Virus record (IMG/VR): IMGVR_UViG_2737471845_000026
Coordinates: 1 to 20,408 of that record
Source: a virus
Taxonomy: Duplodnaviria; Heunggongvirae; Uroviricota; Caudoviricetes
Strand: one strand, 5' to 3'
Length of the DNA: 20,408 bases
A model generated the notes under the pieces. The model ran no database searches and had not been told where the DNA came from. It worked only from the letters and a program-made list of their open reading frames with translations. Of the stretch, positions 7,341 to 20,408 are shown piece after piece. Position numbers and translations under genes: made by a program. Within the stretch, counting starts at the first letter, position 1. Each line of letters starts with the position of its first letter.

Positions 7341-7496
7341 TTACTCCTCAGATTCGTAAGCTGTGAAGACAGTGACCTCCGTCTGGCCGGTTCGGATTCG
7401 TACCTCGCAGAGGTCTTTCCTCATTACCAGTGCCGTCACTATGACGGTTAAACAGATGACGATCAGGGCGATTAACATCGCCTTTTGCTGCTTCAT
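7341..7496 (-). CDS. hok: Hok/Gef-family type I toxin (51 aa), closely HokD/RelF-like
   Basis: Translation MKQQKAMLIALIVICLTVIVTALVMRKDLCEVRIRTGQTEVTVFTAYESEE is a Hok-family hallmark. SD AAGGAG 9 nt upstream. The listed 70-aa ORF is an in-frame upstream extension. Confidence 0.9.
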   Translation of the reverse strand: MKQQKAMLIALIVICLTVIVTALVMRKDLCEVRIRTGQTEVTVFTAYESEE

Positions 7497-7834
7497 AGCC
7501 AGCTTCTCCTTGCCTTTCGGCACGTAAGAGGCTAACCTACATGTGTAAAGCATGAAATTGGCCTCAGATTAATGTTAAGCGTCTTGCCGGACGCGTAATG
7601 TTAACTGGGGCTTTTCTCTGTCTGCCTTACAGTGGCATGCCCGAGGCAGACAGCCTCAAGCACCCGCAACAATCTTACCGACACCGATAAGAAAACGCTA
7701 TTTTTTATTGCCAGAACCTTCTGCCCAGGCTAATGTATCCGCGTCAGAACGGCGCAATGCGCTCGCCTGAGATACGTTTACTTGTCATTGGTGGCAACAG
7801 ATAACGGCAATTGTTATTTCTGTTTGTTTCCTTC

Positions 7835-14603: not shown

Positions 14604-15290
14604 TTTATCCTCCATTGAAGTTACTGGTTGAGAATGGAGACCACACGTGACAGCGTGTTGTCGTGCGCCGGACACGGATAAGAATCCGGCACTGACAGTT
14701 TACTGAAAGAATATATCCCTGAAAAGTCAGGGCATAACTCGAAAGCGCACGGCGGAGGTGTCTTTTCCTTAGAAGGCTTGTCGTTAGATTTCTTCGACCG
14801 TGCGCTTCCGGTTGTGGCACTCCGCGAAATGGCGCGGCGGTAAGTATGGCGGGGTTATCCTTACCCCATTAGTGGCACCGGGTTGTCAGGTTGACCATAC
14901 GCTTAAGTGACATCCCCGCTGCAACAACCCATGTTGATTACCTTTTGGCGGGTATCCGTTTTTTGTTTTCCCTTGTGATACCAGCCCTTTTTAAAGTGAA
15001 TTTTGTGATGCGGTGAATGCGGCTAAGCGCACGCGGAACAGTTAAAAAGGACAGTTGACATTCGTATTGGTTCTTATGGGTGGGTTATCTGTATCCGGCG
15101 TTAATTGTTAACTGGTTAACGTCACCTGGAGGCACCAGGCATCGCATCAACAAAATTCACTTCAGTGATGAAAGGTGAGAGAAAATGTTGAATGTAGCTA
15201 TTGAAAACCAGAACGGGTGGAATTATAGTGCACCTGCACCTCATAAAACGGGTGCCGGGATTTGCACCCCGATGATCACTAGAGCGCATA

Positions 15291-15312
15291 ACCGCGCCAA
15301 AGCGGTTTTTTT
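15291..15312 (+). terminator. Intrinsic-terminator-like hairpin plus U-tract inside the leader upstream of rha (possible attenuator)
   Basis: ACCGC-GCCAAA-GCGGT followed by TTTTTTT; embedded in a larger inverted repeat GCGCATAA...TTATGCG. Confidence 0.45.
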
Positions 15313-15478
15313 ATGCGTAAAGCGCAGCCACATTCAGATTATGGTGGGGCGTATGGGGCCGTTTTCGGGCGGGCCGGATTCTCTAGTGACCGGTAGTGCA
15401 AACCCTGTACGTCTCACCACCCATGAGATTTGCACCTACGGTGGTGAGTTTACCAACTTATCACTAGAGGCTGCCATC

Positions 15479-16033
15479 ATGGCTACTATCCCTACCCTGT
15501 CTCACCCTGACGTAACCATCGAAAACGGTCGCGCTATCACTACGTCTGTTGCGATCGCAGAGTTCTTTGGCAAACGACACGACAACGTGTTACGTGCCAT
15601 CGCAAACATTGAATGCTCAGAAAAATTTAACGCCCTCAATTTTGAGGACGTAACGTACACCGACGCCAAAGGCGAAAAACGTCCAATGTACCAAATCACC
15701 AAAAACGGCTTCGTTTTCCTGGTGATGGGCTTCACTGGCAAAAAAGCCGCTGCATTCAAAGAGGCCTACATTGCTGAGTTCGACCGCATGGAGGCAGAGC
15801 TGCGTCAGAATAACACCCCACCAACTGACAAAATAATTCCTGGCGATGGTCGCACTCTGGTTGTTCGCTTCGACGAACACGGCAATATCAAATTCACCGA
15901 AACCGTTCCTGATGGTGCAATGGTCTGTACTCTGGATACCTTCCAGTTTTATCTGGAGAAACAGGGATGGACACTTGTAAACCGGAGCGCAATTAGAAAC
16001 ATGACTGTCGAACAATTGCTGCGTATTAAATAG
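15479..16033 (+). CDS. rha: Phage regulatory protein Rha (Rha domain), 184 aa from ATG 15479
   Basis: Rha-domain signature VTIENGRAITTSVAIAEFFGKRHDNVLRAIANIE...ITKNGFVFLVMGFTGKKAAAFKEAYIAEFDRME; SD AGAGG 8 nt before ATG 15479. The in-frame upstream extension to 15185 is judged non-coding. Confidence 0.75.
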   Translation: MATIPTLSHPDVTIENGRAITTSVAIAEFFGKRHDNVLRAIANIECSEKFNALNFEDVTYTDAKGEKRPMYQITKNGFVFLVMGFTGKKAAAFKEAYIAEFDRMEAELRQNNTPPTDKIIPGDGRTLVVRFDEHGNIKFTETVPDGAMVCTLDTFQFYLEKQGWTLVNRSAIRNMTVEQLLRIK

Positions 16034-16078
16034 TTTTCTGGAATTTACTTCATATGACTAATTATTATGGAGATAATT

Positions 16079-16300
16079 ATGATTGCTCATCACTTCGGAA
16101 CTGATGAAATACCACGTCAGTGTGTGACTCCAGGCGATTATGTTCTTCATGAGGGCAGGACATATATTGCATCGGCAAACAATATTAAAAAGCGAAAACT
16201 TTATATTCGTAGCCTGACCACAAAAACATGCATAACTGGCTGCATGGTTAAAGTTTTCCTCGGTCGTGATGGATTACCTGTAAAGGCGGAGTCATGGTGA
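16079..16300 (+). CDS. Hypothetical protein, 73 aa
   Basis: ATG 16079 preceded by GGAG (7 nt); AT-rich; no motif recognised. Confidence 0.4.
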
Positions 16301-16551: not shown

Positions 16552-18987
16552 ATGAGTATTGATAAAGAAGAATTTGCACTATATTGCGAAGCAAAAAATG
16601 ACAAAGTCAGAAAACGCCTGGGAATTAAAGGCGGTTTTTACTGGACTACAGCAAAAAAATTATCTGTTGCAATCTCCCGCTGCATTACCGCAATGGATGA
16701 CAACGATTATGATGAAGACGACTTTAAAAAACCGGTCCGAGTCCATTTACCCGTTGTGAATGACCTTCCACCGGAAGGCGTGTTTGATACGGAATTCTGC
16801 AACCGATACGAAAAAGGCGGGGAAGATGGCATCACAATGGTATTTATCGCCCCATCTCCCTCTGCGCAGGACAACCAGGTCAGCACTGACAATACCAATG
16901 TTAATGGCGAAGACATGACGGAGATTGAGGAGAATATGCTACTCCCGATTTCCGGTCAGGAACTGCCCATTCGCTGGCTTGCTCAACACGGCAGCGAAAA
17001 ACCGGTAACGCACGTTTCACGCGACGAACTCCAGGCATTACACATTGCACGGGCTGAAGAACTACCAGCTGTTACTGCCCTGGCTGTTTCCCACAAAACC
17101 AGCCTGCTCGACCCGCTGGAAATTCGCGATCTCTACAAACTGGTTCGTGACACTGACAACGTTTTCCCTAATCCTGGTAATTCAGACCTGGGACTGATGA
17201 CTGCTTTTTTCGAAGCATACCTGGGCGCTGACTACACTGATCGCGGTCTGCTTACAAAAGAGTGGATGAAGGGGAATCGTGTTTCACGTATCACCCGCAC
17301 GGCTTCCGGTGCAAATGCCGGTGGCGGGAACAAAACCGATCGCAATCCGAATTTAGTACACACCTTCGATACGCTGGATGTGGAGATTGCAGCAGCCACA
17401 CTTCCGATGGATTTTAATATTTATGAAATTCCGGGCAGCGTTTATCGTCGCGCAAAAGAAATCGTCCTGAAAAGAGAAAGTCCGTTCAAAGAATGGTCCG
17501 CAGCACTTCGCGCAACCCCGGGTATTCTGGATTATTCCCGCGCCGCTATTTTTGCACTTATCCGGAGCGCATACCCTGAGTTTTATCATTACCCGGGACG
17601 CCTTCAGAGGTATATCAATGCCTATTTAACGGAGACTGATCACGAGAACCCTACCGAGGAAACTCTCACTGCTGCACGACATACACCGGAAAAAGATATC
17701 CTGGAAGAAGTTAACCGCGAACTGGCCGCTGAACGCGAAACAGAAGAAGAAAAAAATAATGAGGAAAAATCACAACCGTCTGACGCAATGGCAGATGAAC
17801 AGGCAACGACTGAAGCAATGGGACAGGATACAACTGAATATCGCCAGGACACTCAATCGCTGGATACTCAGGCACAGATAAATCCGGTTAATCAGGTAAA
17901 AGTTACCGCTGACGAAGTAAACAAAATTATGCAGGCAGCCAATATCAACCAGCCTGATGCCGACAAAATACTGGCAGTCCATCGCGGTGAATTCGTTGAC
18001 GGAATTAGCGACCCGAATGATCCGAAATGGGTTAAGGGGATTGAAACCCGCGATTCTGTGAACCAGAACCTGCCAGAATCGGAACAAAACAGCCAAAATG
18101 CGTTACAAAACGAGCCAGAAACGAAACAGCCTGAACCAGAAGAGCAACAAGAACCGGAAAAAGTCTGCACCGCCTGCGGTCAGACCGGTGGCGGCAACTG
18201 TCCTGACTGTGGCGCGGTGATGGGCGACGCAACATACAAGGAAACATTCGATGAAGAGAATCAGGTTGAAGTTCAGGAAAATGATCCGGAGGAAATGGAA
18301 GGCGCTGAACATCCACACAAGGAGAATGCTGGCAGCGCTCAGGACCACGCCAGCGATGATGAAACTGGCGAGGCGGCAGATCACTCAATTAAGGTGAACG
18401 GTCATCACGAAATCACATCCACCAGCAGGACGTGTGACCATCTAATGATCGACCTCGAAACCATGGGAAAAAACCCTGATGCCCCGATTATCTCAATAGG
18501 TGCAATATTTTTCGATCCGCAAACCGGAGATATGGGACCGGAATTTAGTAAGACTATCGATCTGGAAACTGCTGGCGGAGTCATTGATCGGGACACCATT
18601 AAATGGTGGCTGAAGCAATCACGCGAAGCTCAATCTGCCATTATGACCGATGAAATCCCGTTAGATGATGCACTGTTACAATTGCGAGAATTTATCGACG
18701 AAAACTCCGGTGAATTTTTTGTTCAGGTCTGGGGAAATGGAGCCAACTTCGACAACACGATTTTGCGCCGTTCATACGAACGGCAGGGGATCCCCTGCCC
18801 GTGGCGTTACTACAACGATCGCGATGTACGCACAATCGTTGAGCTGGGGAAAGCCATAGACTTCGATGCCAGAACGGCTATTCCATTCGAAGGTGAGCGC
18901 CATAATGCACTTGATGACGCTCGTTACCAGGCAAAATACGTTTCAGCTATCTGGCAAAAACTGATCCCGAGTCAGGCTGATTTTTAA
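16552..18987 (+). CDS. RecE-like (exodeoxyribonuclease VIII-like) protein with a C-terminal DnaQ-like DEDDh 3'-5' exonuclease domain, 811 aa
   Basis: Residues about 110-600 resemble the non-catalytic N-terminal region of Rac RecE as I recall it ([45 protein letters not shown]; zinc ribbon [16 protein letters not shown]). The last 180 aa carry Exo I (MIDLETMG), Exo II (GNGANFD) and Exo III ([10 protein letters not shown]) motifs. SD GAGG 8 nt before the ATG. Confidence 0.85.
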
Positions 18988-19051
18988 TGTTCAACCCCGG
19001 TCGTCGCCCACCAGCTATAGTGGTGGCGACCATGATTAGCGAACGACGCTC

Positions 19052-19300
19052 ATGGCAAGACTTATTCTGCTCACTGAGTGGGCAAAAGAGGAATTCAGCG
19101 ATCCGGTCCCGACTCCGGGCACGTTAAGTAAATACGCTAAAGCCGGAATGATATTTCCTCTCCCCAAAAAAGTTGGAAGACACTGGCGAGTGGATCCACG
19201 AGCTCGCTTTGTCGGAATGGTAAACAAGCCGGAGGTGATCGCCACAGATCACCCTGCTTTGAAGAGGATACTGGAAGATGGCGCGCCCGCGAAAATATAA
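19052..19300 (+). CDS. xis: Excisionase, lambda Xis-like (82 aa)
   Basis: LILLTEWAKEEF...MIFPLPKKVGRHWRVDPRARFVG parallels lambda Xis (LTLQEWNARQ...IFPPPVKDGREYLFHESA); overlaps the int start by 23 nt as in lambda. Confidence 0.7.
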   Translation: MARLILLTEWAKEEFSDPVPTPGTLSKYAKAGMIFPLPKKVGRHWRVDPRARFVGMVNKPEVIATDHPALKRILEDGAPAKI

Positions 19301-20408
19301 AACCGAAGTTCCGGGACTATCTCCGTATTTTGACAAAAGAAATAACAAAGTTTACTGGCGTTACAGGCATCCCATAACAGGCAAAAATCACGGTCTCGGC
19401 AGTATTGACCAGAAACTGGCAGAAACTATTGCAGCAGAAGCGAACAGCCGTCTTGCCAGGCAGCAAATGGAACAAATGCTCAGTCTGCAGGAGAAAATTA
19501 TTAATGATACCGGCGGTTCATCAACCGTTTCCATTTTTCTGAATAATTACAGAAAAATTCAACAGGAAAGATATGAAAACGGAGAGATCAAACTCAACAC
19601 GCTGAAACAAAAAGCGGCCCCTCTCAGGGTATTTGATGAACGTTTTGGCACCAGACCGTTAGATGCCATAACCGTAAAAGATGTGGTATCGGTGCTGGAA
19701 GAGTACAAGGCCAGAGGACATAACAGAATGGGACAAATTTTCAGGAAGGTACTGATCGATGTTTTCCGGGAAGCTCAGCAAACGGGCGATGTCCCGCCAG
19801 GCTTTAACCCTGCAGAATCGGCAAAAAAACCGCAGGTGCGGATATCAAGACAGCGACTGACTTTTGATGAGTGGATGATGATTTATAACGCAGCGGAAAA
19901 GGATGGTTATTTTTTACAGCGCGGCATGCTGCTGGCACTGGTGACAGGCCAGCGCCTTTCAGATATTTGCAAAATGCAGTTTTCGGATATCCGGAATGGT
20001 TATCTTCATGTCGAACAGCAAAAAACAGGAACCCGGATTGCCATCCCTCTGGCTCTGCGTTGCGATAAATTAAATCTCACCCTGGATGATGTGGTGTCAT
20101 CCTGTCGCGATAGCGTTCTTAGTCCGTGGCTATTGCACCATCATCACGCGAAAGGGACAGCTAAGCGCGGCGGGATGGTTAAGCCAGCAACGTTAACCGT
20201 TGCATTTAAAAAAGCCCGGGATTCTGTGGATTACAACTGGCGTGCTAATGGCACCCCACCCTCTTTCCATGAGCAGAGATCTTTATCAGAAAGATTGTTC
20301 AGAGAACAGGGAATTGATACCAAAATTTTGCTGGGCCATTCGAATCAAAAAATGACCGATATTTACAACGATGCACGTGGTAAGGAGTGGAAAAAACTGG
20401 TCATTTGA
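19278..20408 (+). CDS. int: Tyrosine integrase, lambda Int family (376 aa)
   Basis: N-terminal arm-binding-like region and a C-terminal catalytic region resembling lambda Int (LTFDEWMMIYNAAE, TGQRLSDICKMQFSDI, HEQRSLSERLF, LLGHSNQKMTDIYNDARGKEW). Stop TGA is the last three bases of the window. Confidence 0.9.
   Translation: MARPRKYKTEVPGLSPYFDKRNNKVYWRYRHPITGKNHGLGSIDQKLAETIAAEANSRLARQQMEQMLSLQEKIINDTGGSSTVSIFLNNYRKIQQERYENGEIKLNTLKQKAAPLRVFDERFGTRPLDAITVKDVVSVLEEYKARGHNRMGQIFRKVLIDVFREAQQTGDVPPGFNPAESAKKPQVRISRQRLTFDEWMMIYNAAEKDGYFLQRGMLLALVTGQRLSDICKMQFSDIRNGYLHVEQQKTGTRIAIPLALRCDKLNLTLDDVVSSCRDSVLSPWLLHHHHAKGTAKRGGMVKPATLTVAFKKARDSVDYNWRANGTPPSFHEQRSLSERLFREQGIDTKILLGHSNQKMTDIYNDARGKEWKKLVI

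Follow-up and report, generated by a model that had tools for sequence, protein, structure and literature searches.

What does a strong stem-loop do in the short gap that separates the exonuclease gene of a lambdoid prophage from its xis gene, and does it act as RNA or as DNA? The stretch of DNA analysed here (hereafter the window, 20,408 nucleotides or 20.4 kb in all) belongs to a lambdoid prophage inserted beside ompW, and the records of its close relatives are annotated as PPompW-type phages and prophages. Its genes fall into a rightward and a leftward operon (Table 1), and the element under study lies in the latter, within the 64-nt spacer that separates the exonuclease gene from xis, starting 12 nt past the exonuclease stop codon. 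Many EHEC and UPEC strains carry the ompW prophage. Untimely expression of Xis or Int destabilises a lysogen, so that elements separating xis–int from upstream early transcription matter for prophage stability.

Table 1. Coordinates and sequence elements of the window and of the alternative xis–int modules
Feature	Position	Strand	Content or basis
Rightward operon	1 to ~12,800	minus	CII-like protein, replication genes, nin region, RusA, Q, methylase
Leftward operon	from ~12,900	plus	repressor-like HTH protein, ydfA/ydfB-like small ORFs, Rha/Ant-like regulator, Kil, exonuclease, xis, int
Kil homologue	16067-16300	+	leftward operon
Exonuclease gene, 811 aa	16552..18987	+	ORF list; PF06630, PF16473; PHROG exonuclease families; PDB 8kel
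Last shared stretch, TAATGTTCAAC (stop codon + 8 nt)	18985..18995	+	match ends; five module types diverge after it
Stem-loop	18999..19031	+	folds, shuffles, pair counts on 14 variants
Chi octamer, 5'-GCTGGTGG-3'	19008..19015	-	pattern search
Weak second stem, CATGA/TCATG + GCG/CGC, enclosing the xis AUG	19031..19054	+	MFE structure
xis, lambda-type excisionase	19052..19300	+	PF07825, PHROG 629, homologues
int, tyrosine integrase with arm-binding domain	19278..20408	+	Pfam, annotated relatives
All Chi positions	2952, 3268, 5894, 5946, 6352, 6479, 6536, 12254, 12299, 18419, 19008		often pairs 45-57 bp apart
A3 hairpin arms			ATCGCCGCC-C-AC / GTGGCGGCGGT
B hairpin arms			TTGCCGCTAAC / GTTAGCGGCGG
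C1 hairpin arms			CGCCGGTTG / CAACCGGCG
C2 hairpin arms			CGCCAGTTG / CAACTGGCG

The exonuclease gene is the last gene 5' of the hairpin. The first-pass annotation of this DNA had called it 'recE-like', a description that fits the N-terminal, non-catalytic Exonuc_VIII region and fails for the C-terminus, where Pfam places an Rv2179c-like 3'–5' exonuclease domain with weak PDB matches to exodeoxyribonuclease 8kel. Rv2179c-like domains are of the DEDD type, and the nuclease domain of RecE has a different fold. In ST64B, mEp460 and others, the Rv2179c-like domain forms a stand-alone gene of ~190 aa at the same pre-xis position. On the other side of the hairpin, int is followed by ompW in complete genomes, and annotated relatives place att beyond int, adjoining ompW. 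On reading the sequence, we recognised no Shine–Dalgarno sequence ahead of the xis start; relatives in other genera, unlike the window, have a strong GGAG there.

The near-perfect 10-bp inverted repeat that had been pointed out between the two genes is indeed present: positions 19003–19030 read GTCGCCCACCA-GCTATAG-TGGTGGCGAC, forming 10 bp and leaving a surplus C in the left arm. In a 36-nt folding window, RNAfold preferred a somewhat wider register, 18999–19031, with 12 bp, a bulged C19009, an 8-nt loop and an energy of -19.2 kcal/mol. Here the lower stem pairs 18999–19008 with 19022–19031 (10 bp, two of them G·U), the upper stem consists of A19010–T19021 and C19011–G19020, and the loop spans 19012–19019. 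The register of the first-pass annotation (19003–19013 with 19021–19030) is the alternative. The arms are built of triplets (GTC GTC GCC / GGY GGC GAC), so that a second register, shifted by the GTC–GTC repeat, is possible; when the 3' arm is slid by 3 nt either way, 63–88% of cells still pair, and several registers can form. The energy of -19.2 kcal/mol was reached by only 4 of 1000 and, in a second run, none of 200 dinucleotide shuffles of the 64-nt spacer, and the stem-loop ranks among the five strongest plus-strand 36-nt hairpins of the window. The fold of the whole 76 nt gives a z of only -1.3, the signal appearing with the local-hairpin statistic, and a gapless inverted-repeat search did not report the element because of its bulge.

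The sequence after the stem, ATGATTAG, contains no U-tract (a run of U, at least ~5 of 8), and the terminator/promoter scan returned nothing at the hairpin site, on either strand in the case of terminators, in agreement with the earlier view that this is not a typical intrinsic terminator. Rfam searches over 18900–19150 yielded chance-level matches only (E ≥ 0.8), with gathering-level matches elsewhere in the window. A boxA-like CGCTCTTA is absent from 18960–19000, and the left operon begins ~6 kb away from the hairpin, whereas a nut site lies near the operon start; the element is thus not of the nut type. Elsewhere in the window, the arm sequence does not recur within 2 mismatches beyond chance, and with a median of 1 and a maximum of 3 places per E. 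coli genome it does not behave as a REP/BIME-like dispersed repeat.

The exonuclease stop codon also overlaps an ATG (TAATG, from 18985 on), which opens a 46-aa frame (18987–19127) that traverses the hairpin and extends past the xis start. We rejected this ORF as a gene, as several variants carry 1-nt indels that throw it out of frame and its substitutions are mostly non-synonymous. In the other junction types described below and in the 1-nt-indel variants, the frame beginning at TAATG stops in the arm or loop after 7–18 codons, and the protein is not conserved.

We then consider variation among close relatives. The xis–int module with this spacer was found in 1725 of 5426 complete E. coli genomes, always with the exonuclease gene upstream. 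Copies of the window's type (A-type) are 95–100% identical among E. coli genomes, and at such near-identity conservation alone is uninformative. All 24 junction variants (18 of the window's type together with those of the B- and C-types introduced below) fold at -15 kcal/mol or better. Across an alignment of 14 A-type variants, the 18999–19031 register pairs 97.6% of cells, compared with 91.2% for the register first proposed. Of its 12 pairs, seven show changes confined to one side, always via G·U or U·G, and one pair shows a double change from G–C to A–U; covariation within the A-type is not significant (70 of 500 shuffles). At 19024 the window has the minority allele T where most copies have C, and many copies have T at 19005. 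A fixed T·G asymmetry of the arms is found in 12 of the 14 variants, the arms pairing as RNA. When hairpin-only segments are folded, 12 of 13 hairpin types are more stable on the sense than on the antisense strand; when flanks are included, many variants have a minus-strand fold that equals or surpasses that of the plus strand. The preservation of pairing through sense-strand G·U wobbles makes an mRNA structure more likely than a DNA operator.

The first-pass annotation was silent on the mosaic junction just 5' of the hairpin, and likewise on a Chi octamer within it. Alignments with other phages, and with ~2,350 further E. coli genomes, end at 18995–18997, placing the mosaic junction at 18995/18998. 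The same exonuclease gene, identical through 18995, is joined to at least five xis–int modules: A, that of the window; A3 (L087), with an 80-aa Xis; B, with a 67-aa Xis and an integrase next to tRNA-Ser; C1, found in phage Tritos, with an 83-aa Xis; and C2, with a Xis of ~88 aa. Each module opens with its own GC-rich hairpin of 9–13 bp, 4–8 nt past the shared stretch (arms in Table 1), and all five hairpins are without a U-tract. The shuffle z ranges from -3.2 to -4.7 for the spacers of A (window), B, C1 and C2, and is -1.85 for A3. Between the C1 and C2 hairpins there is a double change from G–C to A–T, while A3 and a B variant have a common stem base, ATCGCCGC/GCGGCGGT, and different upper stems. 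A further locus, L066 (IMGVR_UViG_2698536677_000011), has a hybrid hairpin ~10–45 nt past the exonuclease stop codon, in which the left arm of C2 (CGCCAGTTG) faces the right arm of C1 (CAACCGGCG), followed by the C1 module, with an A·C mismatch in the stem. This locus looks like a recombinant inside the hairpin, with a putative crossover in the loop. The comparison with related prophages that the first-pass annotation had proposed found the hairpin conserved, and other modules with hairpins at the same spot. The presence of different hairpins at one position in unrelated xis–int modules, together with this conservation, favours the earlier expectation that the repeat is likely functional.

Hairpins also precede xis in more distant phages. 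We compared 17 species-level loci encoding relatives of the window's Xis. In Kluyvera and an enterobacterium, TGGCCCA-(GCAA/GCGA/ACAC)-TGGGCCA stands at the pre-xis position; in Enterobacter bugandensis (L013) the hairpin is TGGCCCT-GTGA-AGGGCCA followed by TTATTT, an A–T to T–A swap relative to the Kluyvera form; and a Rahnella locus (L021) has an 11-bp stem with z = -5.8. Taken together, the unrelated pre-xis hairpins of Kluyvera, Enterobacter and Rahnella have z values from -3.6 to -5.8. Mangrovibacter and another Rahnella instead have GCCGG-(T)GTGCAG-CCGG(C/T). We found no hairpin ahead of xis in five loci (L010, L012, L018, L022 and L023), and in three others (L015, L019 and L020) the genes overlap; with several relatives lacking it, the element is not obligatory.

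Distant homologues of the exonuclease led to the same CCGG-type hairpin. In ST64B, PhiR47_1 and Flotzy, CCGG-GTGCAG-CCGG lies between the exonuclease stop and the start of the next gene, and in mEp460 it overlaps the annotated start of the next ORF. Some hairpins of the CCGG type are followed by TTTT, and U-rich tails are found in PhiR47_1, L013 and lambda. The 14-mer CCGGGTGCAGCCGG of this type forms a hairpin of 5–7 bp with a conserved GUGCAG loop. A scan of IMG/VR viral contigs for CCGGGTGCAGCCGG recovered at least 120 stretches (L197–L316), and the 14-mer is also present in L009, L017, L189, L190, L193 and L194. Among the matches listed, 88 of 123 instances lie 0–10 nt past a stop codon and are followed within 16 nt by GGAG and ATG, so placed that the 14-mer sits 2–8 nt from the strong Shine–Dalgarno sequence of xis-like ORFs; again among the matches listed, the ORFs behind it encode 63–111 aa, and most are then followed by an integrase. 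These ORFs belong to at least four Pfam families at gathering score (Exc, DUF4224, DUF1233 and PrtN), along with weaker HTH_17/MerR-like matches and unclassified families. In the matches listed, the first pair flanking the 14-mer covaries: 49 of 58 distinct contexts pair where 31 are expected, a number reached in 0 of 2000 shuffles, with counts of 26 for A–T, 13 for C–G, 9 for G·T and 0 for A·C. Because hairpins recur at the same position in distant phages, a predicted hairpin before xis is a widespread, position-specific feature of many lambda-like phages. In the literature searched, we found no description of the CCGGGTGCAGCCGG element, of the other pre-xis module hairpins or of the window's element.

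The nearest described counterpart is in lambda, where GCCGCC-TGAT-GGCGG followed by TTTTTTC stands directly upstream of xis and is listed as the predicted Rho-independent terminator t5-lambda (Bloch et al. 2014, PMC4195576). The window's element agrees with t5 in position and strand, both being GC-rich stem-loops after the stop of the last leftward-operon ORF and before xis, whereas their construction differs: t5 has a stem of 6–7 bp, a 4-nt loop and TTTTTTC, the window's element 12 bp with a bulge, an 8-nt loop and no U-tract, and reading the two side by side reveals no sequence similarity. Judged by these features, the window's hairpin is the positional counterpart of the lambda pre-xis terminator t5 without its U-tract, and an ordinary member of the class. 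As compared with intrinsic terminators in general, it has the GC-rich sense stem-loop after a gene but not the run of U. The hairpins of the other modules and phages (A3, B, C1, C2, CCGGGTGCAGCCGG and TGGCCCA-GNRA-TGGGCCA) share with it the location between stop codon and xis start and the sense-strand pairing with G·U; their sequences are unrelated to the window's except that A, A3, B and C have a TCGCC...GGCG stem base in common. The CCGG type further differs in its shorter stem and in the close, strong Shine–Dalgarno sequence that follows, the window's xis having no clear one.

Two other classes of RNA element invite comparison. Intercistronic mRNA stabilisers, or 3'-exonuclease barriers, are exemplified by the REP hairpin in malE–malF. 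The window's element resembles this stabiliser in that it is a stable sense stem-loop, has no U-tract and separates two cistrons of the same operon; it differs in being single-copy per prophage rather than a dispersed repeat. The sib retroregulator of lambda is an RNase III site downstream of int and att, with a long duplex of ~20 bp or more. The likeness to sib is that of an RNA structure proposed to tune int/xis expression, and the difference is that the window's element precedes xis and is limited to 12 bp. On these two counts, retroregulation, which the first-pass annotation had offered as one option, does not fit if taken strictly as in sib, the stem being too short for RNase III.

Our leading, if tentative, interpretation, to which we give slightly less than an even chance, is that the repeat forms a stable sense-strand stem-loop that would act in the leftward-operon mRNA as a boundary, whether as a 3'-exonuclease barrier, a pause site or a weak attenuator. 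As the U-tract is missing, efficient termination is not expected. Stable 3' stem-loops protect upstream mRNA, and hairpins without a U-tract mark processed or Rho-terminated 3' ends; we infer a barrier or insulator role because such stem-loops generally protect the mRNA segments upstream of them. The hairpin would block 3'-to-5' exonucleolytic decay, or would pause or weakly attenuate RNA polymerase, such that the exonuclease mRNA and the xis–int mRNA would be handled separately and xis–int kept low relative to the upstream genes; the same spot is the joint at which alternative xis–int modules are swapped. Of the options that the first-pass annotation had raised, an RNA-level element fits best, given the sense-strand G·U wobbles, the better sense fold in most hairpin types and the excess of G·T over A·C in the CCGG type.

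A second reading, which we consider unlikely, takes the hairpin as the vestige of a lambda-t5-like terminator that lost its U-tract in module recombination and persists only because the prophages are recent and near-identical. The ancestral role of the class may simply have been termination, since some of its members (PhiR47_1, L013 and lambda) have U-rich tails, and the window's copy may be a decayed terminator without function. The hairpins of lambda, of the PhiR47_1/mEp460 type and of L013 stand at the same position with U-rich tails that the window's lacks, and the 95–98% identity of A-type copies means that their conservation proves little. This account does not readily accommodate the fact that A3, B, C1 and C2, behind the same gene, are also strong hairpins without a U-tract: five independent losses of the U-tract, with stems of 9–13 bp retained throughout, are improbable. 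Moreover, the variants preserve pairing via wobbles and one-sided changes, and the stems of different types differ by compensatory changes.

The Chi octamer raises a third reading, at the DNA level. Its plus-strand complement, CCACCAGC at 19008–19015, spans the top of the left arm and the beginning of the loop. The window holds 11 Chi sites where 0.6 are expected, 9 of them on the minus strand, the copy in the hairpin being co-oriented with the eight others. In related loci the rate is 0.43 per kb in this orientation and 0.06 per kb in the opposite one. Chi is recognised from its 3' side, so that minus-strand Chi would be read by RecBCD moving plus-ward, entering from the Q/late side and crossing the early genes on the way to int. 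In this third reading, Chi would be the functional unit of a recombination signal, with the palindrome possibly aiding and the hairpin secondary: RecBCD arriving from the late region would stimulate RecA-mediated exchange in or after xis–int, leading to module swapping or DNA protection. We hold this to be distinctly improbable, although it is compatible with a boundary role for the hairpin in the mRNA.

Over-representation of Chi is a published phenomenon: it has been reported in lambdoid phages without recombinases, with the sites concentrated between the replication origin and cos, and lambda itself is without Chi (Bobay, Touchon and Rocha 2013, PMC3784561), whereas the window's hairpin carries one. 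We noticed no recombinase among the annotated genes of the relatives or the eight ORFs scanned in the window. The window resembles the phages of that study in its exact octamer, strong over-representation and strand bias, and differs in that this copy heads the integration module at the far left and is embedded in a hairpin. The mosaic joint lies 10–13 nt upstream of Chi, and the recombinant in L066 falls inside the hairpin, both in keeping with a recombination signal. CCACCAGC is also found in the last 25–30 nt of distant exonuclease genes, just before their hairpins, and among the matches listed 47 of 88 CCGG-type loci have it in the 200 nt upstream, the opposite orientation being absent there.

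Against such a signal, most of the upstream Chi sites in relatives are not independent, since homologous exonuclease coding sequence accounts for them, and Chi is so dense here that one in a 33-nt element is little surprise. The Chi sites of the window share no common hairpin context. Because the hairpins of B, C1 and C2 are without Chi, and about one-fifth of the A-type loci examined have lost the octamer but kept the hairpin (L127, L123, L124, L140, L151 and L153), the predicted hairpin class is not defined by Chi. The CCCACCAGC in the last codons of distant exonuclease genes may instead reflect common ancestry of that stretch, and the Chi-bearing arm of the window's hairpin may derive from an ancestral exonuclease 3' end. 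The window (18962–19016) and the ST64B locus L189 (1137–1166) both read CTGATCCCG ... CCCACCAGC; in ST64B the two pieces are adjacent and coding (LIPPTS), and in the window they are 37 nt apart, with the stop codon and the left lower stem between them.

An extension of the boundary reading, which we also rate as rather improbable, generalises it across phages: the pre-xis hairpins, including CCGGGTGCAGCCGG, would be a portable module-junction signal, a sense RNA read by a common host or phage factor that insulates xis–int, with the stem base (here carrying a co-oriented Chi) as the preferred crossover for swapping integration modules and hence attachment sites. If so, the L066 hybrid and the stem base common to A3 and B would be traces of such exchanges. 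The cross-phage pattern, in which integration modules are swapped exactly at the hairpin and one 14-nt hairpin stands ahead of several unrelated excisionase families, is in our view more interesting than the window's hairpin itself, and it gives a concrete, testable approach to the exchange of attachment specificity among lambdoid phages.

The weakest reading, and one we think very unlikely, is that the repeat is a palindromic operator bound by a dimeric phage regulator and/or a promoter for xis–int whose -10 element is the loop TATAGT (19016–19021): E. coli-type loops do hold -10-like hexamers by eye (TATAGT, TACAGT, TATATA/TATAGT and TGnTATTCT), the phage encodes a CII-like activator (PHROG scan), and the CII-dependent pI promoter of lambda lies just after the lambda pre-xis hairpin, but the promoter scan finds no plus-strand promoter at the site, no acceptable -35 lies 16–18 bp upstream (TTCAAC is 19–20 bp away), the half-site is not repeated elsewhere in the window, the arms are asymmetric as DNA in nearly all variants (the fixed T·G) but pair as RNA, the 4-nt GNRA loops of the Kluyvera and Enterobacter types leave no room for a -10, and hairpins of unrelated sequence precede unrelated xis families. 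The proposal that Xis, Int or IHF binds here fares no better, as the single copy of the arm in the window, the unrelated hairpins before unrelated xis families and the position of att beyond int all speak against it.

Elsewhere in the window, two further sets of RNA genes were recovered. Gathering-level Rfam matches to isrK and C4 antisense RNA (15236–15312 and 15337–15424, plus strand) lie directly upstream of the ORF of the Rha/Ant-like regulator (15485–16033), an arrangement within the left operon that resembles the antirepressor control cassettes of P1/P7 or Gifsy style. On the minus strand, a sok antitoxin RNA (7494–7665; Rfam, 115 bits) was found, and at the matching place in relatives a gene of the hok/gef family is annotated.
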